From a virus (lineage: Duplodnaviria; Caudoviricetes), in the IMG/VR virus record IMGVR_UViG_3300011152_000015, positions 1-64,000 of that record: a stretch of DNA of 64,000 nucleotides. One strand, 5' to 3'. Below, one piece after another: positions 1,975 through 33,294 of the stretch. The translations under genes and the position numbers were made by a program. The notes beneath the pieces were generated by a model. It worked only from the letters and a program-made list of their open reading frames with translations, was not told the DNA's origin and made no database searches. The stretch's first letter is position 1. Each line of letters begins with the position of its first letter.

Positions 1975-2199
1975 TTAGCTGCACCCATCGTTTGCTTGCA
2001 GCAGCTCCTCCCGCGCCACATTGACCGCGGGCGGCGCAGTGATGCAAACCACGATCTGGCCGGGCGTTCGACTGTGATACAGCTCAAGCCAGATGCCCTC
2101 CTCTGTAAGCTGACGATACAGCTCGGCCGCATCCGCTTCGGTTTCTGGCGACAGGAATATCCGCTGGCCTGGCTTGCGATTGATGATGAGATTTCCCAT
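1975..2199 (-). CDS. CsrA/RsmA-family RNA-binding protein, RsmN/RsmF-type with internal helix insertion
   Basis: MGNLIINRKPGQRIFLS...(AAELYRQLTEEG)...GQIVVCITAPPAVNVAREEL matches the CsrA L-x-x-x-R-x-x-G and I-x-AP-x-x-V-x-V-x-REE pattern; RBS AAGGAGGA. Confidence 0.85.
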   Translation of the reverse strand: MGNLIINRKPGQRIFLSPETEADAAELYRQLTEEGIWLELYHSRTPGQIVVCITAPPAVNVAREELLQANDGCS

Positions 2200-2260
2200 A
2201 TATCCTCCTTGACTGGGTCACCTCACCATACAGCGGGAGGTGACGGCGTGCTGTGACTTC

Positions 2261-2782
2261 CTACTCGCCAGCCCGAACCGCCCTCGCCCACTCTTGCAGA
2301 TACTCCAGCTTCTGCCGATCGCTGATCATTCCTCCACGGATATCCCAAACAGCTGATCCAGCTGCTGCACTGAGTTCGACGCTGGTTGCATCGCCCAGGC
2401 TGCTGGAGCCGGTGGCGGCGGACACGATGGCGTCGGCGCGGGCGACGCGGACCTCGATGCGCAGCCGGCGGCGCTCATCATCAGCAGCAGAATACTCGCG
2501 GCGCAGGCGGTCATTTTCAGTTTGTGCATGGGTCAGTTTCTCGGTTGATGTTGTGTCGAGGGCAGCCAGGCGCGCCTCCAGCACAAGGCGGTCGGTCTGT
2601 TGTTTGCGAATGACATCGGCATTGGCCTCGGCGGTGAGGCGCAGGCTCTCGGACCATTCCAAGCGCGACTCCACCAAATCGCGATTGGAGTCCATCACGC
2701 GGTACTGCTGCGCGCCGGCGACCACCACCAGGGCCAGCAGCCACCAAAGCCAGGACGGGAGCATCTTCAGCCAGGCGGTCAT
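2261..2782 (-). CDS. Rz-like i-spanin
   Basis: N-terminal TM helix, coiled coil, ends LEYLQEWAR; follows the endolysin. Confidence 0.85.
   Translation of the reverse strand: MTAWLKMLPSWLWWLLALVVVAGAQQYRVMDSNRDLVESRLEWSESLRLTAEANADVIRKQQTDRLVLEARLAALDTTSTEKLTHAQTENDRLRREYSAADDERRRLRIEVRVARADAIVSAATGSSSLGDATSVELSAAAGSAVWDIRGGMISDRQKLEYLQEWARAVRAGE
2326..2529 (-). CDS. Rz1-like o-spanin lipoprotein embedded in Rz
   Basis: Signal peptide plus lipobox (SAAGC), Pro-rich CPPPPAPAAWAM, alternate frame inside Rz; start could be either early Met. Confidence 0.85.
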   Translation of the reverse strand: MHKLKMTACAASILLLMMSAAGCASRSASPAPTPSCPPPPAPAAWAMQPASNSVQQLDQLFGISVEE

Positions 2783-3120
2783 TTCCGGCCACCGTGCTCG
2801 AGGCTGAAGTGGTTGCCGTCGTTGAACCGGCCGCCCCAGGTGCCACCGAGGCTTTCCCAGTATTCGCCGAGGGGCGCGTAATCTTCGCTGCGCGTCAGGT
2901 ACTGGCCACCCCTGAAGAGGTTGAAGTCCACAGCCAGCCGCTCCTTGTGCAGCGATCCGGCCGAGCTGTAGGACTTCTTCTCGCCAGCCGCACCGTGCAC
3001 ACGCGGGTCACGGTAGGCATCGCCGAAGGTCAGTTCGTAGCCCTCCTGGTAGGCGTACTCGATCAGCAGGCCGACCAGGCGAGTAAAGCGGCGTTGCTTC
3101 TGTCCGAGCGTTTCGGTCAT
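2779..3120 (-). CDS. Endolysin, M15-family metallopeptidase
   Basis: SLHKERLAVD and DGNHFS zinc-ligand motifs, WGGRF; start at ATG 3120 with GGAG RBS. Confidence 0.9.
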   Translation of the reverse strand: MTETLGQKQRRFTRLVGLLIEYAYQEGYELTFGDAYRDPRVHGAAGEKKSYSSAGSLHKERLAVDFNLFRGGQYLTRSEDYAPLGEYWESLGGTWGGRFNDGNHFSLEHGGRK

Positions 3121-3136
3121 GCGTCTTTCTCCAGGC

Positions 3137-3162
3137 AAAAAAAATCCCGCACTAGCGGGATT
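3137..3162 (-). terminator. Intrinsic terminator-like hairpin upstream of the endolysin
   Basis: AATCCCGC-N4-GCGGGATT followed by a T run on the minus strand. Confidence 0.75.
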
Positions 3163-3247
3163 GAACAGGCTGCGCCGCCCTGTTTGCGTAGAAGTGGGCG
3201 GGCTGCTAGGTTCATGATGCCAATTCGGCATCACAGGGAGACATCAG

Positions 3248-3583
3248 ATGAATAGTGGAATTTTTGAGGTGTCCTTTCGCTCGTCCATTCAGGACTTCGG
3301 CGAAGGTTTAGTGGTGATCAAGGACGGCACGGTCAACGGTGGAGACGCTCACTATCTCTACACTGGCCAGTTCGCAGAGTCCAGCGGCACGACCAATGCC
3401 AAGATCAAGGTCCAGATGTGGAAAGCAGGCAGCACGTCGATTGTGAATATCGACAACTACGAGCTTGATCTCACCGGAACCATAGACTTCGAGCATGGCG
3501 CGCTCCGCCTTAGAGGCCAGGTTGTTGGCCAGCCATCTTTGGTGGTTTCAGTAGAAGGCCGGAAGATCGCCGACGCCGCATGA
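3248..3583 (+). CDS. GrlR-like beta-barrel protein (moron, opposite strand)
   Basis: MNSGIFEVSFRS...DFGEGLVVIKDGTVNGGDAHYLYTG resembles the GrlR-family N-terminal pattern. Confidence 0.65.
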   Translation: MNSGIFEVSFRSSIQDFGEGLVVIKDGTVNGGDAHYLYTGQFAESSGTTNAKIKVQMWKAGSTSIVNIDNYELDLTGTIDFEHGALRLRGQVVGQPSLVVSVEGRKIADAA

Positions 3584-3724
3584 CTCTTCTGCTGCAGCGA
3601 TCACTGCTGGCAGTTCAGCATTGATCCGGTCATAGGCGAGGTTTATCCCGAAGTACGCCCCGGCCATGGCACAAGCCAGGCCGAGGGCGGTCGCTGAAAG
3701 CATGCGGGTGATCGAGATACGCAT
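3548..3724 (-). CDS. 58-aa single-TM protein, absent from the ORF track
   Basis: MRISITRMLSATALGLACAMAGAYFGINLAYDRINAELPAVIAAAEESC...; RBS AAGGA. Confidence 0.6.
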   Translation of the reverse strand: MRISITRMLSATALGLACAMAGAYFGINLAYDRINAELPAVIAAAEESCGVGDLPAFY

Positions 3725-3803
3725 GGTCGCAATTCCTTTTGCGGTTGGTTAAGGCCTGATCCTGCCGGACGCGACCAGATTTGCCTGTGAGGCGCTACGC
3801 AGA

Positions 3804-4223
3804 TCAGACGAACTCCAAGGCATGCGATCCTGCGGGGATTGGGTTTGACGTCAGCCCAGACCGGAGGAAGGTTGAAGCAGTTGCCGTCTGGCCGGCCGAG
3901 ACCCAGCCGGTAAGCGGCGCAGCACCATCGATGCTCACACCCGAGAACGGCGCGCTGCCGTAGATTCCGCGCACTTCCACACTGAGGCTGCGCGCCGCAC
4001 CATCCTGCTGGTAATAGAGCGCCAATATCTGCCCGCTTCCTCCGGGCGCTGGTGGCCCACCCGGTATAGCGGTTGATCCGGGCGGCGATATCGAACCGAG
4101 ATCGCCTGACGATGAGTATGCGGACACATAGCCACCAAAGTTCGCCCCGTCGTACGCGGCGACGAGAGTGATACCAGGAGACGAAGCCTTGCGCGGAAAC
4201 CCCGCCACCACACCGGGCATCAT
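3804..4223 (-). CDS. Tail-fibre-associated protein
   Basis: MMPGVVAGFP start overlaps the fibre gene stop (ATGA); Gly/Ser-rich. Confidence 0.7.
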   Translation of the reverse strand: MMPGVVAGFPRKASSPGITLVAAYDGANFGGYVSAYSSSGDLGSISPPGSTAIPGGPPAPGGSGQILALYYQQDGAARSLSVEVRGIYGSAPFSGVSIDGAAPLTGWVSAGQTATASTFLRSGLTSNPIPAGSHALEFV

Positions 4224-5686
4224 GCTGCCACCGTTTGGCCGATCACGATCCATTCGTTCGCGGCAACTTTTTTCAGGGTTACGGTCATACGCGCCGTCAT
4301 GTTTAGCGTGCCGCCTGATTGCGGCTCAAGCACGACGCCACTGGCGGAAGCCAGAGTGATATTGCCGACCGAGCGAATAGTGATCTCGGTTCCGATCTCG
4401 AAAGCGACAGCCGCGTTGGTTGGAACTGTTAGGGTGATGGCGCCTGTCGTTGCTGGGCGCAGTAAGTTCCAGGCGTCGGTCAGGGCTAGCGTGCGGGTTG
4501 TGGCGGTGCCGATGACGGCGGACTTGTCCTGCTTGGTGGCGGGGTCGAAGTTGCCGGTGTGCCAGAGTTCTTGCCAGTCGGTGAACACGCTACCTGACCA
4601 CGACCGCACTGCAACTCGATTCAGGTTGACCCCCCCGCCCATAAGCATTTGCAGGCCGTATGCCGTGCCTCCGCCAGCCACCAACACAACATGACGACCT
4701 TGCCCCCAGCCGGAGGGCAACGGAGTCAGGCCCGCACCAGGGGTTATGAACCCACCGCCGATCGTGTACAGGTTTAGGTTGGCCTCTGCGCTGACGCTGA
4801 CGCCACCTACCCCAAACAACGCCATCGCAGCCTTAACATGCGCCGTAGTAGCAATCGAGGTGTCTCTATCTTCGGCAGCCGGTGTTGGGGCCGTGGGGTT
4901 GCCCGTGAACGTAGGGCTGTTGAGGTCGGCCTTCAGCCCCAGCTGCGCCTGAATCTTCCCGAACGCCGACAACACGGTATCCACCGCCGTGATCGCCGTC
5001 GACACTGCCATGCTCAGGCCGGTCAGCAGCGTGTTCCGTACCCGATGCTCGCTGAAGTAGAGGTTCGTCGAACCTTCGGCCAGCGCGTCCGTGGTACCTG
5101 GCGAGGGGTTGATCTCGGCGTAAACAGAGCCGGTCCAGCGGTACTGGCGAGTGGGGTTCGCCTGGGTGCCCTGGTTGACGGCGATGTAGATTTTCCCGCC
5201 CTCGCCCGTTGCCGGGAAGTCGTCGCGGGTCGGGAACTCCAGCACGTCGTCGACGTAGCTCGGTAGCTGGCTGGACGGGATGCGCGCGTACTCGTCCAGC
5301 GTGGCCACGCCACCGGATACGCCGCGCTCGGTTGTGTCGATCTTCTCGGCCAGCACCGCCTGTAGGCCGCTGACGGTATCGATCGCCTGGGTACCGGTGT
5401 GCGTGGCGCGGTCGCGCAGCTGGGCGTCGGTGGCGTTGGCCGTGGCGCCCGCCTCGATACCACCGAGCTTCGCGCGCTCGGCATCGGTCATCAGCGATTG
5501 CCCTTCGGCCTTGTCCACCTTGCCGGCCAGGCCCAGCGCCGCGTTGGCGGGGTAGCCCACGATCATGCCCGAGCCGTTGGTGACGTAGACATCGTGCCCC
5601 TGCCCGGCGCGCACGTAGTAGATGGCATCGGGCTCCAGCACGGCCGGCAGCGCGGCCACCACCTTGTGATGTTTTACTGTGGCCAT
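4220..5686 (-). CDS. Tail fibre / receptor-binding protein
   Basis: LRDRATHTGTQ, QLPSYVDDVLEF, SPTFTGNPTAPT and WQELWHTGNFDP fibre motifs. Confidence 0.85.
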   Translation of the reverse strand: MATVKHHKVVAALPAVLEPDAIYYVRAGQGHDVYVTNGSGMIVGYPANAALGLAGKVDKAEGQSLMTDAERAKLGGIEAGATANATDAQLRDRATHTGTQAIDTVSGLQAVLAEKIDTTERGVSGGVATLDEYARIPSSQLPSYVDDVLEFPTRDDFPATGEGGKIYIAVNQGTQANPTRQYRWTGSVYAEINPSPGTTDALAEGSTNLYFSEHRVRNTLLTGLSMAVSTAITAVDTVLSAFGKIQAQLGLKADLNSPTFTGNPTAPTPAAEDRDTSIATTAHVKAAMALFGVGGVSVSAEANLNLYTIGGGFITPGAGLTPLPSGWGQGRHVVLVAGGGTAYGLQMLMGGGVNLNRVAVRSWSGSVFTDWQELWHTGNFDPATKQDKSAVIGTATTRTLALTDAWNLLRPATTGAITLTVPTNAAVAFEIGTEITIRSVGNITLASASGVVLEPQSGGTLNMTARMTVTLKKVAANEWIVIGQTVAA

Positions 5687-5690
5687 GCGA

Positions 5691-6257
5691 TCACCAGTTA
5701 GTGGTTGCCCAGCGGCTGCCCACACCTACGCCGTTGAACAGCAGGCCCTCGGCGTCCTCGCCCAGCTTGTCGAGCGTGGCCTTGTTGGTGTGGCTGTGGG
5801 CCATGCTGACGGCGTTGTCGATCTGCGCCGGCGTGCTGGTGGGCCCGCCCTGCAGGTCGCTCCACTGGAGCACCACGTCCATGGATTCGTATTCGGCGAT
5901 TTTGTAGATCGTCTCGGTATCGAACGCGTAGGCGTAAAGCGCAGATCCGGCGGTCACGGTCGGGTCACCGGTGGCGTCCACCACCAGGATCATGGCGTTG
6001 GCTTCGAGGGTGGCGATCAGGGCGTCACGGGCGGCGATGTCCGGCACGATGGAAACGGTGCTGGCGGCACCGGACCAGTTCGCCAGCGCTGCGTCGATCA
6101 GCGCATTGATCATCGCGGTGTTGCCAACGGCGCGCGCCTCGCCTGCGTTGTTGGTGAGGTAGCTTTCCGCGTAGCTGCCGTTTTCGACGTAGTAGAAGGC
6201 GTTGGGTTCGAGGCTGCCGGGCAGTGTGGTGACTTTGTAGAACTTGACCTGGGCCAT
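5691..6257 (-). CDS. Virion/tail accessory protein
   Basis: 188-aa ORF in the tail operon with strong RBS (AGGAGG). Confidence 0.8.
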   Translation of the reverse strand: MAQVKFYKVTTLPGSLEPNAFYYVENGSYAESYLTNNAGEARAVGNTAMINALIDAALANWSGAASTVSIVPDIAARDALIATLEANAMILVVDATGDPTVTAGSALYAYAFDTETIYKIAEYESMDVVLQWSDLQGGPTSTPAQIDNAVSMAHSHTNKATLDKLGEDAEGLLFNGVGVGSRWATTNW

Positions 6258-6269
6258 GTGGCCTCCTGT

Positions 6270-6527
6270 TTACCAGTGGTTGATTTCCCACGAATGGGGA
6301 GGTGCGTAGAGGCCGTTGTCGCTGCCTTGGGTAAGGGTGTTGCCGGGGTCGGCGCTGATGACGGGGGAGCCATCTGAGCCTGGGGCGTCTTTGCCGGGTG
6401 GCCCTGGCGGCCCCTGCTCGCCGGCGGTAACGACGAGCGTCTCGGCATCCGGCTCCAGCGCGACGGCGTATTCGCTGCCGGCCTCGATGACCAGCACCTC
6501 GGGATCGCCGCAGATGGCTACGCTCAT
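6270..6527 (-). CDS. Small virion protein with a short collagen-like Gly-X-Y tract
   Basis: GEQGPPGPPGKDAPG; ISADPGNTLTQGSDNGLY. Confidence 0.75.
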   Translation of the reverse strand: MSVAICGDPEVLVIEAGSEYAVALEPDAETLVVTAGEQGPPGPPGKDAPGSDGSPVISADPGNTLTQGSDNGLYAPPHSWEINHW

Positions 6528-7099
6528 GCAGTCACCTCGCGGCTGACGGTGACGGCTCCCTGCAGGTAGCGCTGCACAGTGCCGTCGGCGTACTCGACTT
6601 CGAGGTCATAGACGCCCTCGGTCCAGGTGAGCGCGGCGGTCTGTTCGGCGCTGAGGGTGCGGCCGAGGGTGCCGGGCGCGGTGATTTCCAGTCCGCCGTT
6701 CTCGGTCGTCAGCTCCAGCAGCACCGGCCCGCCGATTTGCGGGCGGATCTGCATGCGCGCCTTGGCGCCTGTCAGGTCAACGGGCGGCTTGTAGATCAGC
6801 TGCCCGCCGCTGGGCGTGAGGCCGAATGCCGACAGCGCGTTGATCTCCAGCGTGGACTCATCGATTACCGTGACACGGTGCGGACGCTCACGCTGGGAGC
6901 GGTTTAGGCCCTGCATGCCGGTGACGCCCTCTACCCAGGCGAGCCAGTTGCCCGGCAGGCCGTGGTCAACGGTGAGGTGCAGCGGTGACCCGCCGATGGC
7001 GGTAATGGGCCGGTACTCCAGGCGCGGCTGCATCAGCCGCAGGGTGTCGCGCAGGGTCGCGCCCTGCACGATGTGCAGATCGAGTTTGGCGGGTTGCAT
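6524..7099 (-). CDS. Virion structural protein (tail)
   Basis: PVDLTGAKARMQIR...YDLEV motif seen in phage tail adaptor-type proteins. Confidence 0.75.
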   Translation of the reverse strand: MQPAKLDLHIVQGATLRDTLRLMQPRLEYRPITAIGGSPLHLTVDHGLPGNWLAWVEGVTGMQGLNRSQRERPHRVTVIDESTLEINALSAFGLTPSGGQLIYKPPVDLTGAKARMQIRPQIGGPVLLELTTENGGLEITAPGTLGRTLSAEQTAALTWTEGVYDLEVEYADGTVQRYLQGAVTVSREVTA

Positions 7100-7115
7100 G
7101 GAAAACTCCGGGCGT

Positions 7116-7138
7116 AAAAAAGCCCACCGGAGTGGGCT
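7116..7138 (-). terminator. Intrinsic terminator-like hairpin
   Basis: AGCCCAC-N4-GTGGGCT plus T run on the minus strand. Confidence 0.7.
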
Positions 7139-7164
7139 GGGGTTGTACGCGAGCGCTAAGTCAG

Positions 7165-8700
7165 TCAGATCACGCCCAACAGCGTCTTGTCCAGGTGGTC
7201 GACTGAGCGGGTCACTTCAAGCGTCAGAGGGTTGAACACCACAAATGGAACATGTGGCAAGGCAACAACCTTGGGTGCCATTTCGCTGCCTTCTGGCGTG
7301 ATCACAGCCGACATGTAAAGGTCGGTCGCGGTTCTCGCCACGATGGTCCATGCCTTCTGGCAGGTTGCCGATACAGAAGCCTGAACGCCGGTAGGCAACG
7401 AGAGTGGTTCAGGCGCGTAGGTCTTCGTCATGTCCGGCGGCGCAGTGGCGGTGATCGAAAGGATCGCGAGCTCCTGGAAGCTCAAGCCGCTGTCGTCAGT
7501 GGACTCGACGGAATGATCGACCAGTCCCTCCACCAGTTCTGAATCAGCATACTCGACGGACCCCAGATAGGTTGGGGAGCCACCCGATATCGGATTCGAA
7601 TCGACCGCAGCCACTCGGGATCGATCGTCCCTGCCGCTCAGCGTTAACTCATCAGTATCACTGTAAAGCCGGATCTCATACTCACGCTCGCGCGCATAAG
7701 CGACTCGCCAGTGCTGGTTTTCATAGCTGGTCGAGGATGGCGACCACTTCTCCGCGTAGGTACCGGATGGGTCGCCGCTCTGCGTGATGCGCTGCGTGTG
7801 GTCACAACGAACGAGCACCACGCCGCCCGGAGTGAGCCAGCCGCCCATGACCCTGCCCTTGCGCTCGGTCTCCTCGAGCATTGTTCCGGTGTGCGGATGA
7901 GCATAGATGCCGGCGCCGGTCGAGTAGTCGGGGGGAATCGGCGTGAGCTCGAGACTGCCGCTACTGGCGTTGATCCTGGCAGAGTAACGATCCGAATTAC
8001 GGGAGTAGGTGTGCGCACCCAGACACTCAGAGGTTGTCGCAGCCACTGCATAGGTCAGCGTGAGGCTGCCATCTTCAGCCTGGCCGATGGTGACGAGCAC
8101 AACGCCGACAATGAAGTATTGCCGCCCTGCAGGCGAGGTGTAGCTGTTGCTGTGGGTTATCAGCCTGCGCGTGCCATCCGCTGAGCGGTCGATCTGCCTG
8201 GTGACTCCGAAGTCGAGCGGGCCAGGCATTGTGTTGAAGTCACCTCCATAGGGGCTGGTCAGGATATTGACCCCTGCTGTGACGTCCTGCTGGTCGTACG
8301 GGGTAGAGGCGACAACCACGCCATCCTCGACAAGTCGCAACTCGCCGGTGCGCCCATATTCAGCGCTCCACCTGACGTCCAGCTTGCGCGTGACACCGCC
8401 AACCCGCGTCTCTGTATCAGTCACGCGCAGCAACCCCCGGCCGAGCGACTCGCCGCCCGCGTCGTACAGGCACTGCGAGTACGGCGGGTCAGGATTGCCG
8501 ATGTCCCACAATGCAGGGTCGGCCAGGTAGTTCGGGAATTCCTGAAAACTAAGCGGGCTTGGCGGTAGCGGAACGGCTGGGCGCCCTTCGCTGGGCTGCA
8601 GCCATCGGTTATCGGCCTGCTGATACACGAGCCCGTGCCAGGGGTACGGGTCGAAAGCCTCGATCCACAGCGGGGACGGCCAGTAAGCTTCACAGGTCAT
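7165..8700 (-). CDS. Tail-tip/virion protein (probable start MTCEAYW at 8700)
   Basis: ATGA overlap with the stop of 8697..9164; the upstream part of the 737-aa ORF is shadow sequence. Confidence 0.75.
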   Translation of the reverse strand: MTCEAYWPSPLWIEAFDPYPWHGLVYQQADNRWLQPSEGRPAVPLPPSPLSFQEFPNYLADPALWDIGNPDPPYSQCLYDAGGESLGRGLLRVTDTETRVGGVTRKLDVRWSAEYGRTGELRLVEDGVVVASTPYDQQDVTAGVNILTSPYGGDFNTMPGPLDFGVTRQIDRSADGTRRLITHSNSYTSPAGRQYFIVGVVLVTIGQAEDGSLTLTYAVAATTSECLGAHTYSRNSDRYSARINASSGSLELTPIPPDYSTGAGIYAHPHTGTMLEETERKGRVMGGWLTPGGVVLVRCDHTQRITQSGDPSGTYAEKWSPSSTSYENQHWRVAYAREREYEIRLYSDTDELTLSGRDDRSRVAAVDSNPISGGSPTYLGSVEYADSELVEGLVDHSVESTDDSGLSFQELAILSITATAPPDMTKTYAPEPLSLPTGVQASVSATCQKAWTIVARTATDLYMSAVITPEGSEMAPKVVALPHVPFVVFNPLTLEVTRSVDHLDKTLLGVI

Positions 8701-9164
8701 ATGATTGGCGGCGCCTGAAGGGAGTTGAACACAACTTCGTTTCCGTTGGCGTCGACTATGGTGATGGATTCCACCCGGCGAATGCGCCAGTACCCTCGCC
8801 CGTCGATCGACTCGATGAACTCTGGTGTCGACGCGTAGGTGCGCGAGGTTTCCTGCAGCGGGCCGGCAATGCCCCCGCCCGTTGTTGGCGGCGCCTTGTA
8901 CACGCCCCGGCCGCGCGAGGGCGGTAACGCACCAACGGGCTCGACCGGCCGCAACGTCCTGCGCGGCGGACGAGGGTCGGTGAGGCGGTTGATGTCGGCT
9001 GCTACCGATTGGCCGGTGCGCTGCTCTATCATCGCCTGGCCGGCGCCGCGTCGATTTCTCTCCATTGCCTGGCCGGCGGCTTGCCGCTCGGCCTGCCCGG
9101 TTGGGGCCCGACTGGCCGCCATGCCCGCGGCGATCGCTTGTCGCTGCTGTTGTAGTGTGGCCAT
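8697..9164 (-). CDS. Hypothetical tail-region protein
   Basis: Tightly packed, co-oriented ORF. Confidence 0.75.
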   Translation of the reverse strand: MATLQQQRQAIAAGMAASRAPTGQAERQAAGQAMERNRRGAGQAMIEQRTGQSVAADINRLTDPRPPRRTLRPVEPVGALPPSRGRGVYKAPPTTGGGIAGPLQETSRTYASTPEFIESIDGRGYWRIRRVESITIVDANGNEVVFNSLQAPPII

Positions 9165-9167
9165 GAA

Positions 9168-9476
9168 TCACACCTCGGGCGCTACCGTTGCCAGCTCCAG
9201 CCATTGCCAGGTTTCGCCACCCGGGTTGTGCGTCACCCATACGCGGTACGGGCCAGTACGGGTGGTGCACATTGCGCCACCCTGCGGCGCCGGCTCCGGG
9301 GGGGTGTCGATCGTGGTCAGGTACTGCATGCTTTGCGCGGCATCTGCCACCTCGAACCAGTCGAAGCCGCCGCGGCACAGGTACTGCCGGCCTTCGGCAT
9401 CTGTGCAGTGCGAACCGGCATCCGCCATGAAGTCAGGGAAGCCTTCCGATTGATAGGTGTGCTGAACCGTTGCCAT
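9168..9476 (-). CDS. Hypothetical tail-region protein
   Basis: TAATG coupling, GGAGG RBS. Confidence 0.7.
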   Translation of the reverse strand: MATVQHTYQSEGFPDFMADAGSHCTDAEGRQYLCRGGFDWFEVADAAQSMQYLTTIDTPPEPAPQGGAMCTTRTGPYRVWVTHNPGGETWQWLELATVAPEV

Positions 9477-24844: not shown

Positions 24845-24879
24845 ACCTAACCCTTTGAAAGACGGACATCTCTGTCCAG

Positions 24880-24944: not shown

Positions 24945-24957
24945 ATTGACCGCCCCT

Positions 24958-25707: not shown

Positions 25708-26048
25708 CGCCGCCTCGCCTGCCCCAATGCATCGCGCCGCTCATGCTGCCGCCGCTCGACGCCATCCCACCCAGCCGGCCGGAACGCACCGGCCAGGTTG
25801 CCGCCGCTTTGCCACACCGCCCAGGCGAACACCGCCAACAGCAGCACCAGCGGCCAGGCAGGCGGTGGGATCAGCAGCTTGCCGATCAGGATGTAGATCA
25901 CCGCTGCACCGGCGCTGCCCATCACCAGCATGGCCAGGCAGGACACCCCACGGCGAAACCGCGCTGCGCCACGCCGATAGGTGAACAGCCGCGCGAACAG
26001 CACCAGGCAGATCAGGAAAGTCGCCTGAGTTAGCAGAGCACTAGCCAT
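25704..26048 (-). CDS. Holin-family membrane protein (3 TM)
   Basis: Three hydrophobic segments, YRRGAARFR, GGNLA. Confidence 0.8.
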   Translation of the reverse strand: MASALLTQATFLICLVLFARLFTYRRGAARFRRGVSCLAMLVMGSAGAAVIYILIGKLLIPPPAWPLVLLLAVFAWAVWQSGGNLAGAFRPAGWDGVERRQHERRDALGQARRR

Positions 26049-26406
26049 CCGCACCTCCGTCACTGCCCAGAGATGGCGCGGCACGGCGGCGGATGGCGGC
26101 CAACGCCACCGTCACCACCAGCACCGCCGCACCGAACGCAGCCGGCCCAGGGTAAGCGAACGGGCGGATACCCCAGAACTCGGCCTCAACGATGGCGGGC
26201 GAGAACTGGTAGCCCATCACGAACGAAACCATGAAGAACAACAGCCGCTTCCAGATGGGCAGATCGTGGGTCGTGGTCACATACACCAGCGCACCCAGCA
26301 GCGCGCCAACAGCCGCGTCGCCATTCACGCCCGCCATGAATCCAGCCAGCCCGACGCCCGCCGCACCGGCGACAACAATGCCCGCAGTGCTCGTCGGCTC
26401 GCCCAT
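26041..26406 (-). CDS. Putative holin/antiholin membrane protein
   Basis: MGEPTST start, several TM helices, first late gene. Confidence 0.75.
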   Translation of the reverse strand: MGEPTSTAGIVVAGAAGVGLAGFMAGVNGDAAVGALLGALVYVTTTHDLPIWKRLLFFMVSFVMGYQFSPAIVEAEFWGIRPFAYPGPAAFGAAVLVVTVALAAIRRRAAPSLGSDGGADG

Positions 26407-26442
26407 GCCTGCTCTCCAACCGTTGAATGATTCAGAAAAGAC

Positions 26443-26468
26443 AAAGCCCCGCACGATGGCGGGGCTTT
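26443..26468 (-). terminator. Terminator-like hairpin ahead of the late operon
   Basis: AAAGCCCCGC-N6-GCGGGGCTTT with a T-rich tail on the minus strand. Confidence 0.7.
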
Positions 26469-26684
26469 GAGGGGTGACCGGCAGGGGGACCGGCCGTTGC
26501 CTGACACAGCAAGTAAGGCTCGTTTCGGTCATCGCCTTGGCGCTGCTCTGACCTGTTATGCGCTTTGTACCCCTCGAACCCGGAGGCGTAAACAGCGAAT
26601 TAACGCCAATGGCTCACCACGGGTTCTACACGGGGTCTGCACGGGCTCGCCACGGGACGACGGCGGATTTCTGAAAGCGATTTT

Positions 26685-27176
26685 TTACGCGACGTACCTC
26701 CCGCCGTGCACCCGCTGCATACGCGCCCGGCGGTCCAGCTCAGCCTGCACCAGTTCATGCAGCCGCTGGACCCGTGCGTCATACGTGCTAGTCGAATTGA
26801 TGCGCACCCGCCGCATCTGCTGCGCAACAGTCGGGATCGGGTCCGGCAGGTAGCGCACCATTGCCAACTTCACCAGCTGCGTCTCCAGGCAGTAAGGCGC
26901 CCGCCCCTTGTTGCCAGCCAGGCGCCAAGCCCTGGCCAACTTGCGGTCCTCACGCAGGCCGGCCTGCTTGATGCTGCCGATGGCTGCATCCACCTCCTCA
27001 GCCACACGATCCACCGCGCCCGCCAGCCCCATCGAACCGCGACCAGATGAGGGCACCATCCCGCCGTACTGCATCGCCACTGCCAGCGGCGTCGAACCGC
27101 CCTCGCCCGGGGCGCCCAGGCCACGCCGGCAACGCTCCCCCCAGTGCTGCATCAACGCTTCCACTGCCTCGATCAT
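26685..27176 (-). CDS. Probable late-gene regulator (Q-position antiterminator/activator)
   Basis: MIEAVEALMQHWG N-terminus, C-terminal HTH-like segment, located between replication and late genes. Confidence 0.6.
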   Translation of the reverse strand: MIEAVEALMQHWGERCRRGLGAPGEGGSTPLAVAMQYGGMVPSSGRGSMGLAGAVDRVAEEVDAAIGSIKQAGLREDRKLARAWRLAGNKGRAPYCLETQLVKLAMVRYLPDPIPTVAQQMRRVRINSTSTYDARVQRLHELVQAELDRRARMQRVHGGRYVA

Positions 27177-27198
27177 GGCCTCACCTCCCCTGCAAAAC

Positions 27199-27495
27199 GC
27201 AACCCAACACAAAAAGCCCAACCCAACACAAACCCAACACAGCCAAAAGCCTTATAAATCAATGCCTTCAAAGCACCTGTGTTGAGTGTGTTGGGTTTGT
27301 TGGGTTTTTCAGCCCTCGCATAGAGAAATTTCACGCCTCCGATCAAAGCGCCGTACAAAAACATTGCGCATGCGCGCGCGCGTGGCCAAACCCAACACAC
27401 CCCGCACACCGCCCGCAAAGCCCCGCCATTCGCGGCCTCGGCCTGTGCTGGGTTACGAAAACCAACCCGACACAACCCAACACAACCCAACACAC
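27199..27495. repeat. Cluster of direct and inverted CCCAACAC repeats; probable replication origin
   Basis: About a dozen exact or near copies of (AA)CCCAACAC / GTGTTGGG directly downstream of the primase-helicase. Confidence 0.75.
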
Positions 27496-27507
27496 ATTCA
27501 TGCGCAT

Positions 27508-30207
27508 TCATGCTGCAGCCGCCTTCAGGTGCTCCCACCTGTCCACGTCCCAGCCCGCCAACCGCGCCTTTCCACGCCACTCCGTCACATGCTGGCCGAG
27601 CGCAGCGGCTGCCAGAGATGGGGGCAGGGAAGAGTCCGGGTCACCGGGAAAGAAAAACGCCCCGAAGCGCCGCGTCGCGCCATCCGTCCAGGGGATCGAG
27701 CGCGTCTTCTCCACCTCCGCACTGATGAACAGACTGAACTTCGTCTGGCTCATCGCATGCTCACGGTTGCGCTGGCACCACTCCAGAAACATCGCATACA
27801 GGTCCGTTGACAGGCACGCGCCCCAAAGCCCCTGGCCAAGGTCACCCGTCTGCCACTGATGCAGGAACGTCTGCCACCCCGCCCTGCTCAAAGCCACCAG
27901 CCGCTGCCGCGCCTCGGTGCGCGGCGGGCGCGTGCGCTGGTTGAACTCGCCCAGGTCCAGCGACAGCAACCAGCCATACAGCGCCGCCACCCCATTGCCG
28001 GCCAACTCCGCGCCGATGGCCTTCTGCCGCGCCTCCGGCAGCGTCTCCTGCGGCCAGATCACCAGCATCCGCCGATCGCTGTCACTGATCGGCCACGGCA
28101 GAATCTCGTTCGAGAGGAACACCGCATTCATATGGTTGGCTTCCTCCCAACCATTGATGAACTTGCTCTCCATCCGCACCGTCTTGCCCGTGATCAGATG
28201 CTTGATCTTCCCCACCTGGTTGTAGCGCTGGTCCCGGCTTACAACCTCCTCGAACACAGCCCACAACTTGCGGCTCTGCCACGCGTTGAAGCTCGATTCC
28301 AGCTGCGTCTGCCCCACCGTCGCCGCATAAATGCCGAACAACTGGCCGAATGCATCGGCGAACAACAGGCTCTTGCCCGAGCCCTCCATGATCGAGTGGG
28401 CCAGCACCGCCGTGTCCATCTTCGCGCCCATGTGCTGCAACGGGTAAGCCAGCCACCTCGTCAGCCAGTCGCGCGCCTGCTCGTCGTGATTGCACAGGAA
28501 CGAGATCAACCACCGCAGGTTCTCGCACGCCGCATCATCTCGAATCGGCTCCAGCGGCAGCCCCTCGAACGTATTGATGTAAACAGCCGGGTCCTTCGTC
28601 ATCGCCGGGTCGAACACAATGTGGTCCACATCCACCGTGCGCCGCTCTGCCGAGTTCAGCCACAACGCATACGCATCGCCCAGCGCCATCTTCACCGCGC
28701 CCTCCGGGATGCGCCGCTTCTTCTCGCGGTCCCACACATCCTTCGTGCCGTCGATGTACACATAGCGGTCGATCGGCGTCATCCCCAGCGCCGTCGCCTT
28801 CTTGCCCGCCATGCGCCGCGCCTGCTCGATCTCGCGCACCGCATCGGCGCCGATCAGCTTCTTCTCCGCGTCATCCATCCAGGCCTTCGCCAGCGGCTTT
28901 GTCACCAGGGCCTCGAAGGCGGTCTTCTTCATCACCGTCTTCTTGTCCTGGTCCCAGACGTGCGTCGTACCCTCCACCAGCGCAAAGCGCCGCAGCACCT
29001 GCTCACCCGTCAGCCCCGCCCCCTGCCCCCCGTTTTCGGAGGAGCCGGCCGGCGCGGCGGCTTCGGTTTCGGATGGGGCCGGGGAAGGCTCACCAGCGGC
29101 CAGAGCAGCCTCCAGCTGCGCCGCCACGGCCTCGAGCCCGTCGCACGCATGCAAGTCATTCCAGTCCCCGCCCTGCTCGCCCTCAGGCAACAGCGGGAAG
29201 GCCGGCACACCGCCCACCTGCCCCGCCGCCGCCTCGGCCTTCGTCCTGCCCGGGTTGCCCGCCACGGTCGGGTCATCATCCCCGGCGATCACCAGCGGCA
29301 CGTCTGGGCACTGCGCCCGCAGCGCCGCAGCCACCGCCGGCACGTTGCCCGAATCGATCGCCACTGCCACCGGCCAACCCTTGGCCATATGCACACTGGC
29401 CGCCGTGGCATAACCCTCCGCCTCGGCAACGACATCGGCGCCGGCCAACTCGCCCAGCACATGAAAGCAACCCGCCTTGCGCCCGTACTTCGGGAACAGC
29501 TTCGTCCCCTGCTCGTTGATCGCCTGCAGGCTCCACAGCTTGCCCGCCGCATCGCGCAGCGGCACCGCAATGGTCCCGGCCTTGAACATCAGAAAGCTGA
29601 TCGAATCCGGCCGCGGCTTCGGCAGGTTCGCGAAGAATTCCCGCGTCTCGCTGCCCACCCACACATCGCAACGCTGCCGCGCATCGTCGATGGCCAGCAC
29701 AACCGTGTAATGAAAAAACCCAACACCAAAAGCCCCCACCTGCTTGCGCTCCAGGTAGGGGCTCACGCCTTGCGGCTTGCAATGCTTCTCCCAGATCAAC
29801 TGGCACGCGCTCGCAACCGCCTCACGCATCACCGCCAGCCGTGCCTCATCCGCCTCGATCTCCGCCTGGCGCACGGCGCGCCGGGCTTCCGCCTCGGCAT
29901 TCAACCGCCGCTTCTCCTCGGCCGTCATCGGCTCGCGGCGAGGCGTCCAGCCGTTATCCTTCGCCAGCTTGATCACCGTACCCATGCCGGTCCCGCGCTT
30001 GCGGCAGCTCTTCCACACGCTGCGCGCATCGGCGGCCTTATAGCCGTCACCGGTCTGGCTCCAGCCATCCCAGGCATCGAAACCCGCCTCGCCAAACTCG
30101 GCCTTCACGCCCATCGCCACCGCCAACCAGGTGTCGCGGTCGTCGGCGTGAATGAAGGTAAGCAGCTCGGCGAGGTCTGTAAGCGTCAGCGGGACTTGTT
30201 CAGACAT
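27508..30207 (-). CDS. Primase-helicase (PriCT-2-like, TOPRIM and SF3 helicase domains)
   Basis: DDRDTWLAVAMG..WDGWSQ; AEGYATAAS..IAGDDD; EGSGKS Walker A; FEEV. Confidence 0.92.
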   Translation of the reverse strand: MSEQVPLTLTDLAELLTFIHADDRDTWLAVAMGVKAEFGEAGFDAWDGWSQTGDGYKAADARSVWKSCRKRGTGMGTVIKLAKDNGWTPRREPMTAEEKRRLNAEAEARRAVRQAEIEADEARLAVMREAVASACQLIWEKHCKPQGVSPYLERKQVGAFGVGFFHYTVVLAIDDARQRCDVWVGSETREFFANLPKPRPDSISFLMFKAGTIAVPLRDAAGKLWSLQAINEQGTKLFPKYGRKAGCFHVLGELAGADVVAEAEGYATAASVHMAKGWPVAVAIDSGNVPAVAAALRAQCPDVPLVIAGDDDPTVAGNPGRTKAEAAAGQVGGVPAFPLLPEGEQGGDWNDLHACDGLEAVAAQLEAALAAGEPSPAPSETEAAAPAGSSENGGQGAGLTGEQVLRRFALVEGTTHVWDQDKKTVMKKTAFEALVTKPLAKAWMDDAEKKLIGADAVREIEQARRMAGKKATALGMTPIDRYVYIDGTKDVWDREKKRRIPEGAVKMALGDAYALWLNSAERRTVDVDHIVFDPAMTKDPAVYINTFEGLPLEPIRDDAACENLRWLISFLCNHDEQARDWLTRWLAYPLQHMGAKMDTAVLAHSIMEGSGKSLLFADAFGQLFGIYAATVGQTQLESSFNAWQSRKLWAVFEEVVSRDQRYNQVGKIKHLITGKTVRMESKFINGWEEANHMNAVFLSNEILPWPISDSDRRMLVIWPQETLPEARQKAIGAELAGNGVAALYGWLLSLDLGEFNQRTRPPRTEARQRLVALSRAGWQTFLHQWQTGDLGQGLWGACLSTDLYAMFLEWCQRNREHAMSQTKFSLFISAEVEKTRSIPWTDGATRRFGAFFFPGDPDSSLPPSLAAAALGQHVTEWRGKARLAGWDVDRWEHLKAAAA

Positions 30208-30940
30208 CGCCCGCCTCCACCCGCTTGAACTCGACGACCCAGACCCAAGGGTTAGCATCCCATGACTCAGCGCCGTTCATATCCGCCCAAAGGCGCTTAA
30301 ACCGGTCACGGGGCTGGTTCATCGCATTGAACAGCTCACGTTCGGCTCCGTCCCAAACATCAACATCACGGATGCCCTCAGGCCGCTCGACGCCCTCAGC
30401 AACTGCCTGATCCTCGCTGATGTCATGTAGGCGCTCGACGTGCACAGCGGTGATCTCCAGCAGGATGCGCGAGGCCCAGCGGGGCATGTGGATGCTGGGC
30501 TTCCAACGACACTGCATGTTGCCGTCCGGATCAGTGAATTCGCACGAATCACCGCTAGCACGATAGGAGCAATGCGCCGTGTTCTGGTAAGGCGACATGT
30601 CCTTCCACCAACTTGGGTCGGCTCGCATCTCGTCATCGTCGACAAGGGGGCCTTGCCACGCCTCCCGCACCCATAGCCGGTCGCCTGGCCGGCCATAAGG
30701 GCATGCTCCGAACTCGCCGAGCTCCATTGCGCACTCTTCCTCTGTCTCGCCAAACACGCAGAATCCATAGCGGGGATGACGCTGCCCGACCGCGCTCCAG
30801 CGATGGCGGGTTTCCCCTTTTGAGGGATCTTCCTTTGGAATCTGTAGGCCCTTTACTGGCCGCCGCGTCACCGTCTTACGGCCTTCAAGAATCGCGCGAA
30901 CCATGGCGCTATCGAACAGAATCGGACGCTCTTTAACCAC
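30200..30940 (-). CDS. ASCH/PUA-like phage protein
   Basis: KERPILF..MVRAILEGRKTVTRR, WKPSIHMPRWASRI, NPWVWVVEF. Confidence 0.85.
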   Translation of the reverse strand: MVKERPILFDSAMVRAILEGRKTVTRRPVKGLQIPKEDPSKGETRHRWSAVGQRHPRYGFCVFGETEEECAMELGEFGACPYGRPGDRLWVREAWQGPLVDDDEMRADPSWWKDMSPYQNTAHCSYRASGDSCEFTDPDGNMQCRWKPSIHMPRWASRILLEITAVHVERLHDISEDQAVAEGVERPEGIRDVDVWDGAERELFNAMNQPRDRFKRLWADMNGAESWDANPWVWVVEFKRVEAGDV

Positions 30941-31154
30941 GACGCACCCCCGCATCCAGTTTATCCAACAAGGTCTGGCAGTCGATGCACGTCTGGCAGC
31001 CCGGTGCTGCTTCGCGTCGAGCCTGCGGAATCTCTACGCCGCACTCCTCGCAATGCGTAGCACTCGGCCCGGTCGGCAGCTGCGCGCGGCGCGCCAAGGC
31101 CACCTCCAGCAGATACTCGGCCTGCTCATTGCCGCGGTCGATTACATCAGCCAT
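30933..31154 (-). CDS. TraR/DksA C4-type zinc finger protein
   Basis: MADVID, CEECG..IPQARR..PGCQTCIDCQ. Confidence 0.92.
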   Translation of the reverse strand: MADVIDRGNEQAEYLLEVALARRAQLPTGPSATHCEECGVEIPQARREAAPGCQTCIDCQTLLDKLDAGVRRG

Positions 31155-31650
31155 GGGTCACCTCCCCTTCTGCAACGGCCTCGAGCATCGCCAGCTCCGC
31201 CCCGGCCACGATGCCCAGCAGCTGAGCCACCACCTGGTTGGCGTGGTAGCGCAGCGCCTCCACCTCGTGGGGCAACCAACGGTCGTCGGCCACCCCCTCA
31301 TGCAGGCTCTGCACGAAGTCGCCCTTAGCGCGCATCACCTGGGCCAGCCCCTTCAACGCCTCGCGCGAGGCGCGAACCGGCACCGGCACATACGCCACCG
31401 CACCGGCCGGGCGCACCAAGGCCGCCAGCAGGCGCGGGTCCCGCGTGGCGGCCACGATCTCCTCCAGGAACTCAGGGTGGATGGGGCGGTTGTTGTTCGG
31501 GCTGACGCGCTTGTTCAGCTCGTCCGGGTCCATGCCGATGGTCAGCGCCACCGCATTCTGGCCCCCTGTTGCGTCGCGCGTGGCGCGGTACAGCGCCTGG
31601 CGGGTGTTCAGCACCGGGCCAGCGCCCGGTAATAGATCCTTGCGACTCAT
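31147..31650 (-). CDS. Phage regulatory CII-family protein
   Basis: GGQNAVALTIGM..LNKRVSPN HTH; located downstream of cro. Confidence 0.75.
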   Translation of the reverse strand: MSRKDLLPGAGPVLNTRQALYRATRDATGGQNAVALTIGMDPDELNKRVSPNNNRPIHPEFLEEIVAATRDPRLLAALVRPAGAVAYVPVPVRASREALKGLAQVMRAKGDFVQSLHEGVADDRWLPHEVEALRYHANQVVAQLLGIVAGAELAMLEAVAEGEVTHG

Positions 31651-31710
31651 AGCGTTAATGCCCCCTTAACGCTGTAGCCAACCGCAGGGCGATTGCCCTA
31701 CAGTTCGCTT

Positions 31711-31879
31711 ACAGCTCGCGACCCTCCCGATACGTGCTGTGTCCTCGGGTCGCGGGTTGAGGCGGTCGGGGTGGTACCCGACTACCGGACCGCAGGAACC
31801 AGGGCTGACGCTTTGGTGAGTGAACTGCCCTTGGTTCCTGCCTCTACACAAGCCTGCCGCCGTAGCGACAGGCTTTTTT
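31711..31879 (+). ncRNA. Candidate structured antisense/trans-acting sRNA
   Basis: TACAGT -10 at 31699-31704; stems 31712-24/31747-59, 31764-83 and 31792-805/31827-41; plus-strand terminator 31851-31879; loops complementary to repeated early-leader motifs. Confidence 0.7.
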
Positions 31880-31995
31880 GCTTCTGGGCTGCTTGCCCGG
31901 CGCCGGCCCGATGGCGCTGGTGAGGCTCTCGGGCCGGCTCCCGCCGTGATACTTGGTTGTTGCTGTGCTGTGTCCTGTCGGCGGGCTGTGATTCG

Positions 31996-32256
31996 TTATG
32001 CGCGGCGCTCGCCTTGTCGGCGTTCGTTCTGACGGCGATCCCCATCGCGTCGCTCAACGCGCGGATCCGCCGCAATACCGCCTTCCGCCAGCTCTTGTGC
32101 GTAAAGAGCCTCGATTGCCTTTCCAGTGGTGTATCGGATATCCGCGCCATTAAGCGCCCGATGAATCGTCGGCTGGGTGGTTCCCACCGCGTCGGCGATC
32201 GAGCCTTGCGAGTAGCCAAGTTCCACCAGTCGCTCAATCATCTTTTTGATTTTCAT
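31996..32256 (-). CDS. Cro-like HTH repressor with Arg-rich ERR/DRR tail
   Basis: SQGSIADAVGTTQPTIHR HTH; divergent from cI. Confidence 0.9.
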   Translation of the reverse strand: MKIKKMIERLVELGYSQGSIADAVGTTQPTIHRALNGADIRYTTGKAIEALYAQELAEGGIAADPRVERRDGDRRQNERRQGERRA

Positions 32257-32268
32257 CGCCTCTATACC

Positions 32269-32346
32269 TATGCGCATTCGCATTAAACTCGATAATACGC
32301 GGACGTATTAAATGAATCAATACACTTGCCTATACGTTTACGAATC
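32269..32346. promoter_or_regulatory. Three operators between cro and cI
   Basis: TATGCG-CATT-CGCATT (32269), AATACG-CGGA-CGTATT (32294), TATACG-TTTA-CGAATC (32331). Confidence 0.8.
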
Positions 32347-32356
32347 GGGCACGGAC

Positions 32357-33022
32357 ATGAACATAGGCAAGCGGCTTGCAGCCATGCTGGAGGAGCTCGA
32401 CTGGTCCGAAGGTGAGCTCAAGCGACGATCTGGCGTGCCGCAGCCCACCATCCATCGGATCATTACCGGCGAGTCTCAGGACCCCCGGCAAGGCAACGTT
32501 GAAAAGATCGCCAAGGCGCTTGGAGTAACTGCTCATTGGCTCCGCCATGGCGGCTCGAGGGACCAGAGCGTCAAGGAGGATATTGCGCTCTATGCTTCCA
32601 ACGTCGAGCCCGGCCCACCGATCACCAGCCCGTATCGCGCCATTAAGATCGTAGGCACAGCACAGATGGGCAACGAAGGCTACTGGTACGCCCTGGACGA
32701 GGCGGAAGGTTATATCGACGTACCGTCGCGTGATCCTGATGCCTACGCGCTACGGCTGAAGGGGCACAGCATGGCCCCAGCGATCAAAGATGGATGGCTG
32801 GCAGTAGTTGAGCCGAACAGCCCTCTGGTTCCGTTTGAGTACGTGATGATCCGCCTGCATGACGGCGAGTCCATGGTGAAAGAGCTTCTGCGCGCTACCG
32901 AAGATGAGGTGCTTGTAGGCTCCGTTAATAGCGAGTACGGGCGGCGCACGATTCCTACCGATCAGATCGAGCAGATCCACTATGTCGGCGGCATTGCTCC
33001 GCCCAGCAAGATTAGGCTTTGA
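32357..33022 (+). CDS. CI-like repressor (HTH plus S24 autopeptidase)
   Basis: ELKRRSGVPQPTIHRI; KGHSMAP serine; MVKEL lysine. Confidence 0.95.
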   Translation: MNIGKRLAAMLEELDWSEGELKRRSGVPQPTIHRIITGESQDPRQGNVEKIAKALGVTAHWLRHGGSRDQSVKEDIALYASNVEPGPPITSPYRAIKIVGTAQMGNEGYWYALDEAEGYIDVPSRDPDAYALRLKGHSMAPAIKDGWLAVVEPNSPLVPFEYVMIRLHDGESMVKELLRATEDEVLVGSVNSEYGRRTIPTDQIEQIHYVGGIAPPSKIRL

Positions 33023-33063
33023 TGTGGCGCGCCGGCGGCTAGTCCGCCTACTACGTTGGATGC

Positions 33064-33088
33064 AAGCCCCGCACCTAGCGGGGCTTTT
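33064..33088 (+). terminator. cI terminator
   Basis: AAGCCCCGC-N5-GCGGGGCTTTT. Confidence 0.8.
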
Positions 33089-33103
33089 GATAAGCGATAC
33101 GAC

Positions 33104-33121
33104 TGTAAGCCATCACCTACA
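33104..33121 (+). promoter_or_regulatory. GacA-box-like upstream activating sequence
   Basis: TGTAAG-CCATCA-CCTACA versus consensus TGTAAG-N6-CTTACA (one mismatch), ~60-75 nt upstream of the GGA-rich RNA. Confidence 0.75.
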
Positions 33122-33177
33122 GCTGGCGTCATGATCAAGCCGTATCCGGCTCCGATCATTTCGATCATAGTTCGCTC

Positions 33178-33294
33178 GCAATAGCGCAGGACGCGCCCCG
33201 GGCCTGGAGGGCCGATGGACCACCGCGTGGATCGCGGAGCTTGGAGCACCGGGACAACAGCATCAATTCAGCCCCGCCTCGTGCGGGGCTTTTT
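33178..33294 (+). ncRNA. RsmX/RsmY-like CsrA-sequestering sRNA
   Basis: Seven GGA in ~70 nt, three in hairpin loops (GCGC-AGGAC-GCGC, GGCC-TGGAG-GGCC, CCGCG-TGGAT-CGCGG); terminator 33270-33294; 5' end estimated. Confidence 0.8.

Follow-up and report, generated by a model that had tools for sequence, protein, structure and literature searches.

An RsmY-like sponge RNA gene and an RsmN-type protein gene in a lambdoid prophage: two Gac/Rsm components that appear to be inherited separately

Introduction

Can a temperate phage carry a Gac/Rsm circuit of its own? The question is raised by the first 64 kb (hereafter, the window) of the 91-kb IMG/VR provirus record IMGVR_UViG_3300011152_000015. A preliminary description of this DNA had placed a CsrA-family protein at the late/lysis end of a prophage and a CsrA-titrating small RNA (sRNA) in its immunity region, and had pointed out a repeated early-leader motif with GGA in the contexts AAGGAC, ACGGAC and ATGGAC. 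From these parts it had proposed a self-contained circuit by which the phage would read host GacS/GacA and act on host or phage mRNAs. The two genes are examined here together with their distribution among proviruses and in Stutzerimonas genomes, and both are found to belong to the predicted types, the sRNA to an RsmY-like family and the protein to the RsmN/RsmF subtype. Their distribution suggests that they travel with different phage modules.

Results

An RsmY-like sRNA gene in the immunity region

The left 44 kb of the window is a lambdoid prophage, as read from PHROG matches and repeated operators. The sRNA gene (33179..33294, plus strand) lies between the cI-type repressor gene (32312..33022, plus strand; phrog_4, E 1e-37) and two left operators (33755-33795) that overlap the leftward early promoter. 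Its predicted start is approximate and was set 7–8 nucleotides (nt) past the -10 element CATAGT (33166..33171, plus strand), which is kept in the phage-type copies; with this start, a putative GacA box, TGTAAGCCATCACCTACA (33104..33121, plus strand), begins at -75. When the window was searched for TGTAAG-N6-CTTACA this was the sole match with no more than one mismatch (it has one), against 0.01 expected by chance. For the canonical rsmY of five Stutzerimonas species the corresponding value is -76 or -77; in some homologues of the phage sRNA the box is degenerate (2–3 mismatches). The sRNA ends in a terminator (33270-33294), and a second terminator, recognized from sequence, follows cI (33064..33088, plus strand); the hairpin of the latter is also found 5' of sRNA copies in G014, another of the genomes compared. 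Seven GGA sites (33189, 33206, 33217, 33229, 33236, 33243 and 33252) fall within 84 nt, a density that no other stretch of the window exceeds on either strand (mean, about one).

The Rfam RsmY model (RF00195) aligns the sRNA end to end with 30 bits (E 0.0013), below the gathering cut-off of 57 bits, and at gathering thresholds Rfam returns nothing in the window. The RsmY and RsmZ of the hosts score 65–77 and 91–99 bits, respectively, with the Rfam models. The element therefore appears to be built, and may work, like RsmY, but by the curated score it is not a member of RF00195.

The minimum free energy (MFE) fold of the single sequence is no more stable than those of shuffled sequences (z = -0.61); with its GGA loops buried it was set aside as uninformative, and RNAalifold applied to five near-identical copies was dropped for its implausible long-range fold. 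In their place, a structure of three hairpins (33184-33196, 33201-33213 and 33223-33237) was drawn by hand and tested on 11 diverse copies. In this 11-sequence alignment the three GGA-pentaloop hairpins and the terminator leave 88% of cells paired, versus 31–50% with slid partners, and compensatory changes are seen at five pairs; 8 of 500 shuffles gave at least as many. Together these features confirm, at the level of sequence, a conserved Rsm-type sponge sRNA gene with its own predicted promoter and terminator, in the place where the preliminary description had put it.

Homologues at 81–91% identity are present in two other proviruses (G007 and G011), in a 19-kb IMG/VR fragment and in two contigs of Stutzerimonas nitrititolerans GL14. 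Stutzerimonas is also the closest cellular relative, and strain GL14 encodes the phage-type protein at 99% identity together with the sRNA at 89–91%. Copies at 71–74% identity occur in six further Stutzerimonas species. The body of the copies is nearly invariant while the flanks diverge, and the GacA box and -10 element hold their positions. No match to the sRNA was returned by blastn from 50,697 GenBank phages or 72,556 plasmids, and an exact 21-mer scan of genome contigs gave one true match beside 15 chance matches in unrelated genomes of high GC content, among them those of actinomycetes. A covariance model of the sRNA (R1), tuned to Stutzerimonas, found 21 strong copies (68–132 bits) in 15 of 67 Stutzerimonas species representatives, counted apart from the canonical RsmY, RsmX and RsmZ. 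Judged by their sequences, these accessory RsmY-like sRNAs are a separate paralogous family, found in about one-fifth of Stutzerimonas species and missed at Rfam thresholds.

Two other observations were made on these genomes. RsmX-like sRNA genes are arranged in tandem, in twos or threes and 0.2–2.4 kb apart (G021:C3:438230-438798, G074:C5:183238-185631 and others); their scores are 40–62 bits with R1 and 39–44 bits with the Rfam RsmY model. In three Stutzerimonas species the accessory RsmY-like sRNA is followed, about 600–700 nt further downstream, by a group-I-intron-like Rfam match (37–39 bits, cut-off 50; L095:2236-2424, L096:791-979 and L097:2129-2285); at two more loci (L099 and L107) a transfer RNA (tRNA) gene stands at the same distance from the sRNA, and the matches may mark an intron-bearing tRNA.

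In all three phages that hold both the sRNA and the protein gene, the sRNA is found 3' of the repressor unit and in the same orientation, in three different immunity contexts. Two related proviruses (G005 and G013) have cI at 94% identity and a right flank in common with the window, and in both a 1,066-bp insert replaces window positions 33023-33347. By these alignments, the slot that follows cI takes variable, swappable cargo. The insert contains a thermonuclease-like open reading frame (ORF; …VADGDTLTCL…) that fills the sRNA slot (G005:36531-37597, L063), and a thermonuclease-like ORF also stands directly upstream of the sRNA in G007 (65843-66352, L074).

An RsmN-type protein in the lysis cassette

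At the other end of the prophage, a gene on the minus strand (1975..2199) encodes a protein of 74 amino acids, P0001, that is predicted to be an RsmN/RsmF-type RNA-binding protein of the CsrA family. With phmmer, residues 1–70 match RsmF/RsmN of Pseudomonas aeruginosa (PDB codes: 4K59 and 4KJI; E 2e-5), and the alignment to 4K59 continues through the RsmN insert. The Pfam CsrA profile (PF02599) covers only residues 47–69, the C-terminal third, with 23.3 bits versus a gathering cut-off of 27; a score below the cut-off is expected of the rearranged RsmN type. The RsmN-type proteins of Stutzerimonas islands score 31–45 bits with the same profile. As the PF02599 search of the window's own record missed P0001, an alignment of RsmN-type proteins (A4) was used for the surveys described below.

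An AlphaFold2 model of P0001, built on a 12-sequence alignment (mean predicted local distance difference test score 76.6), has strands at residues 2–7 and 14–18, a helix at 24–33 and strands at 37–42, 48–54 and 59–63, which is the arrangement of RsmN. In RsmN an insert of about 16 residues forms an alpha-helix between beta2 and beta3, and the protein binds GGA hairpins in RsmZ in a manner that requires Arg62 (PMC3791407); the defining insert is present in the P0001 model. Foldseek searches of the PDB returned significant matches to RsmF/RsmN only (4K59, 4KJI and 4KRW; E 2e-5 to 9e-5, template-modelling scores 0.72–0.80), the next-best match having E 0.19. All 12 sequences of A4 have R63, R8 and E65, and these residues align to their counterparts in 4K59, R63 corresponding to Arg62 of RsmN and Arg44 of RsmA, and R8 and E65 to the Arg8–Glu64 salt-bridge pair. 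Sequence and model thus confirm the predicted CsrA-family protein and refine it to the RsmN/RsmF subtype.

The family is small, with six clusters at 90% identity among 5.8 billion proteins in a word-indexed search. Relatives of P0001 are encoded at 22 loci in IMG/VR, tblastn found none in 50,697 GenBank phages, and identity to the chromosomal and island RsmN-type proteins of Stutzerimonas is only 31–35%. A second RsmN-type gene, 49% identical, is present in the 82-kb record of G007 (5592-5789, L218), beside a homologue of the window's SRAP/S24 region (4356-5555, corresponding to window 1-1199), so that this record may contain two prophages or have an end structure that is repeated.

The gene lies directly 3' of an Rz-like spanin gene (2261..2782, minus strand; phrog_2466, E 7e-31), which follows an endolysin gene (2779..3234, minus strand; phrog_1768). 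An intrinsic terminator (3143..3162, minus strand) precedes the lysis/rsmN block; it is strong and falls within the endolysin ORF as mechanically called, the true start of which is probably downstream of it. After rsmN comes a phage-conserved ORF of unknown function (1649..1936, minus strand; phrog_3944, E 9e-30), the last in a block (1649-3159) that also contains the endolysin, Rz and rsmN genes. This block is 85–97% identical among otherwise unlike proviruses and so behaves as a mobile lysis cassette.

The rsmN leader (2200..2260, minus strand) holds UAGGAAG about 45 nt before the ribosome-binding site AAGGAGGA, which contains GGAGGA, with a hairpin in between that has a CCUCC arm and is kept in 13 proviruses with some paired changes. 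Scanning of 2200-2260 on the minus strand detected neither a sigma-70-like promoter nor a terminator belonging to rsmN; such a scan is blind to late promoters, and the timing of rsmN expression is accordingly uncertain.

Co-occurrence of the two genes in proviruses

The preliminary description had named co-occurrence across related prophages as a check on its circuit, and this was carried out. Proviruses were gathered by means of P0001, a comparison set was gathered by means of the neighbouring Rz spanin, and the whole records were searched with R1 and A4. Both genes were found in three proviruses (the window, G007 and G011), rsmN without the sRNA in 14, the sRNA without rsmN in one (G099) and neither in 17. 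The sRNA is therefore present in 3 of 17 rsmN-positive versus 1 of 18 rsmN-negative proviruses (Fisher one-sided p = 0.28; p = 0.57 for records that are at least 90% complete), the records being mostly from one metagenome series and hence not independent samples. Over 3.1 kb, the cro-cI-sRNA block of G099, a complete provirus, is 95.9% identical to the window, and this provirus has no rsmN. A model-free scan of 10 rsmN-positive, sRNA-negative proviruses found no GGA-dense RNA terminated by a T-run; its sole candidate, in G005, was rejected as it maps within the primase gene.

The window, G007 and G011 have the same layout, with rsmN and the sRNA 31–36 kb apart on opposite strands. G007 and G011 have about 40% of their DNA in common, and the three proviruses derive from two or three mosaic lineages. 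Overall, the loci are largely independently distributed in phages, an outcome that the preliminary description itself had listed as speaking against its circuit; the comparisons point to an sRNA that moves with the immunity module and a protein that moves with the lysis module, inherited separately and not as a fixed circuit.

Linkage on Stutzerimonas chromosomes and islands

With A4, 27 RsmN-type genes were identified in 22 of the 67 Stutzerimonas species representatives, and 26 of the loci were scanned over 10 kb on either side for Rsm-type sRNAs. A GGA-rich, terminated sRNA of this type lies within 10 kb of four or five of the 26, versus 0.42 expected (P(>=4) = 1e-3; P(>=5) = 8e-5). The distance between sRNA and rsmN is 2.1 kb in an island with RadC and DUF4256 (G081), 2.0 kb in an integrated element that also encodes an MvaT-like silencer and a replication initiator (G068), 1.9 kb for a truncated phage-type copy (G061) and 7.2 kb at one locus of G074 (C6). 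A fifth pair, 9.7 kb apart in the same genome (G074:C9), is ambiguous, for rsmN is carried by a P4-like satellite, and the tRNA and integrase at the border of this satellite separate it from the sRNA, which is on the chromosomal side. Weak R1 matches near rsmN in G032, G022 and G079 were rejected, as they contain 1–3 GGA and are driven by the terminator. Accessory sRNAs also occur in genomes that have RsmA only (for example, G072 and G021). Physical coupling of the two kinds of gene thus recurs on accessory DNA without being a rule, and to judge from gene positions some functional coupling is plausible.

Two of these elements have further features. The P4-like satellite at G074:C9 (L138:10914-18500 and L146:6672-6875) has a tRNA-adjacent integrase, a Toprim primase, DUF3987 and a capsid gene in addition to its RsmN-type gene. 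In G068 the gene for the MvaT-like xenogeneic silencer (L212:10380-10808, minus strand) adjoins both the RsmN-type and the replication-initiator gene, so placing two mimics of global regulators side by side.

The repeated early-leader motif

The repeated motif and its GGA contexts are as the preliminary description stated them. Six exact copies of GGACACAGCAC are present, at 31734 and 31965 on the minus strand and at 33834 (33834..33844), 35561, 36835 and 40435 on the plus strand, and none of 100 shuffles reached six. Three copies supply the GGA of a Shine-Dalgarno sequence 8–11 nt ahead of a start codon, one extends over a start codon, and two are on the cro-cII transcript. The leaders contain no second GGA and no convincing presentation of the site in a hairpin loop. 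The set of six is present in five proviruses without the sRNA (G001, G005, G009, G010 and G013) and absent from G007 and G011, which hold both Rsm parts. It therefore belongs to the early-gene module and is probably unrelated to Rsm, and the motif was rejected as an Rsm site on the grounds of this distribution, its lone GGA and the lack of loop presentation.

Other features of the prophage

The remaining prophage genes follow a lambdoid order. The integrase gene (42705-43985, minus strand) was identified by a PHROG match, and a leftward early operon on the plus strand by PHROG and operator layout. A DUF1654 gene (33398..33715, plus strand; Pfam PF07867, E 5e-20) is a second cargo gene in the interval between cI and the left operators. 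On the other side of cI, the right operator AATACGCGGACGTATT (32294..32309) overlaps the promoter of a cro-like regulator gene (31996..32283, minus strand; phrog_6831), beyond which lies a gene for a CII-like activator (31147..31650, minus strand; phrog_101). The primase, large terminase and structural genes, all PHROG matches, are on the minus strand. Between the replication and packaging genes, a GC-rich terminator accounts for most of a sub-threshold match to the Pseudomonas rnk leader (26434-26531, minus strand; 32.7 bits, cut-off 55). ARAGORN calls an 83-nt tRNA-Cys (8553-8635, minus strand) within a long ORF (7165-9378, minus strand); with no Rfam tRNA at that place, this is probably a false call.

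The lysis block is adjoined upstream by an ORF on the strand opposite to the late genes (3248-3583, plus strand) that matches GrlR (30 bits, above the cut-off) and, weakly, the PliI lysozyme-inhibitor family; it may be an accessory gene (a 'moron') for a lipocalin-like lysozyme inhibitor. Past the lysis end, the rsmN side of the prophage is flanked by an S24 peptidase gene (UmuD/LexA-like; 1-441, minus strand) and an SRAP peptidase gene (YedK-like; 527-1231, plus strand). The pair is kept in nearly all related proviruses at only 66–82% identity and may be phage cargo or host flank.

Discussion

The reading that we favour, and regard as fairly probable, is that the sRNA and the RsmN-type protein are two separate morons acting on the host Gac/Rsm pathway, which met by module shuffling and are not an obligate pair. 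On the sequence features described above, the phage can plausibly tap the host switch at two points. To this extent the proposal that it reads GacS/GacA and acts on mRNAs survives, since a GacA-box sRNA and an RsmN-type protein make it plausible; the early leaders as its targets do not.

The sRNA would be expected in a lysogen as long as host GacS/GacA is active, because its promoter is of the GacA type, a terminator stands between it and cI, and its position is typical of lysogen cargo. It would then act as an additional RsmY-like decoy, soaking up host RsmA and any RsmN and driving the lysogen further towards the Gac-on state. The RsmN-type protein is probably made with the late genes, since its gene follows the spanin gene and has neither a promoter nor a terminator that could be recognized. 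Late in infection it would attach to GGA hairpins and keep host mRNAs, and perhaps some of the phage, from being translated, an effect opposite to that of the sRNA. Host RsmA may also gate rsmN, as the leader places a GGA about 45 nt upstream of GGAGGA, together with a hairpin; Marden et al. are said to have found in 2013 that rsmF of P. aeruginosa is repressed by RsmA. Where a phage has both parts, its own RsmN-type protein should be titrated by the sponge as well, by analogy with RsmN, which binds RsmZ hairpins, and with RsmQ of plasmid pQBR103, which has host RsmY/Z among its ligands (PMC9928087). A plausible pay-off for both parts is offered by a 2025 preprint, according to which the level of antiphage and antibacterial defence in pseudomonads is set by Gac/Rsm (PMC11888443).

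Several results weigh against two independently acquired morons or against the identities on which that reading is built: the curated cut-offs that sRNA and protein both miss, the uninformative MFE fold, the blindness of the promoter scan, the descent of the both-part proviruses from two or three mosaic lineages, the island proximity above chance, and strain GL14, the only one of the 67 representatives with a phage-type protein, which also has two sRNA copies. The GL14 pair, the few both-part lineages and the island enrichment hint at more coupling than independent morons would imply. They are what would be expected if the two genes formed the co-adapted, self-contained Rsm circuit of the preliminary description, co-selected so that the sRNA mainly buffers or gates the phage RsmN according to Gac status, and the common layout of the window, G007 and G011 fits this too. 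Nevertheless, we consider such a circuit unlikely, although it deserves to be taken seriously: most rsmN-positive proviruses have no sRNA and, in the 10 scanned, no substitute RNA; G099 has the sRNA without rsmN; the association in the provirus table is not significant; G007 and G011 are not fully independent; many accessory sRNA copies are in RsmA-only genomes; and the satellite pair at G074:C9 is ambiguous. What stands of the circuit is the proximity on islands, while in phages the distribution is largely independent. A more elaborate version, which we think rather improbable, is a co-adapted viral two-part switch in which the lysogen sponge raises Gac outputs (antiphage and antibacterial defences) and neutralizes leaked RsmN, until late RsmN overwhelms the sponges and shuts these outputs for phage production; the RsmN and Rsm-sRNA pairs seen on islands and satellites would then be further instances of this device.

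The identities themselves might be wrong, the sRNA-like stretch being a structured, terminator-rich remnant or a cis element and the protein having lost RNA binding or taken another role. The low Rfam and Pfam scores, the MFE result and the truncated sRNA copy in G061 would agree with this, but we judge it very unlikely in view of the nearly invariant sRNA core between diverging flanks, the positional conservation of the promoter elements and GacA box, the compensatory changes in the GGA hairpins, a GGA density that is the maximum of the window, and the RNA-binding arginine and salt-bridge residues that are invariant in the protein family. Equally far from our expectation, and if anything still less credible, is that the GGACACAGCAC leaders are Rsm targets that connect a circuit with the translation of early genes and with the 31.7-kb antisense RNA. 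The excess of copies over shuffles, the three sites placed before start codons and a related sequence, GGAAGUCACAGCACG, in the rsmN leader speak for it. Set against these are the presence of the set in sRNA-less proviruses and its absence from both-part phages, the single GGA per leader with no second site or convincing loop, and the fact that a Shine-Dalgarno GGA is not specific. The motif is better seen as part of the early-gene module.

What sets this virus apart is that it carries the other half of Gac/Rsm, a predicted decoy RNA with the GacA promoter architecture of its host. A prophage that would push Gac/Rsm up through a sponge, and possibly down through RsmN, offers a tractable case of viral control over a global post-transcriptional switch. 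No phage-borne Rsm sponge sRNA is described in the papers that were searched in full text. CsrA-family genes on plasmids and phages are already known, but the RsmN type has not been reported in phages: a 2020 survey lists csrA genes in 30 phages, with the RsmM type in P. aeruginosa phages, reports rsmN from a single possible genomic island and makes no mention of a sponge carried by a mobile element (PMC7366521).

P0001 resembles P. aeruginosa RsmN/RsmF (4K59, 4KJI and 4KRW) in its rearranged fold, its equivalents of Arg8, Arg62 and Glu64, its hydrophobic helix residues and its length of about 70 residues, with a structure-based identity of 40%. Unlike that protein, which is encoded at a chromosomal locus, it belongs to the lysis module of a temperate phage and to a small, narrow clade. 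The phage is also comparable to the elements that carry RsmQ, RsmM or CsrT, the last a CsrA-family gene on Legionella integrative and conjugative elements as cited in PMC9928087 and PMC7366521, in that a translational regulator of the CsrA family arrives on a mobile element and could interfere with host Gac/Rsm. Those regulators are RsmA/E/H/M-like and not of the RsmN type, and no description of them includes a GacA-driven sponge encoded by the element; a sponge on the plasmid does not appear in the RsmQ paper (PMC9928087).

Like RsmY (RF00195), the sRNA is about 115 nt long and has a GCGC-AGGAN-GCGC hairpin at its 5' end, several GGA sites placed in loops and linkers, and a terminator rich in GC; in both, the GacA box stands near -75. 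It differs from host RsmY in its Rfam score (30 bits versus 65–77), in belonging to an accessory paralogous family and in its location in a prophage immunity region. In the immunity region of lambda, the lysogen-expressed cargo genes rexAB lie between cI and OL, the left operator. The phage sRNA is placed likewise, between the repressor gene and the left operators and in the orientation of cI. Unlike rexAB it is non-coding, and it has a promoter of its own that is predicted to be regulated by the host and its own terminator, with a further terminator setting it apart from cI.

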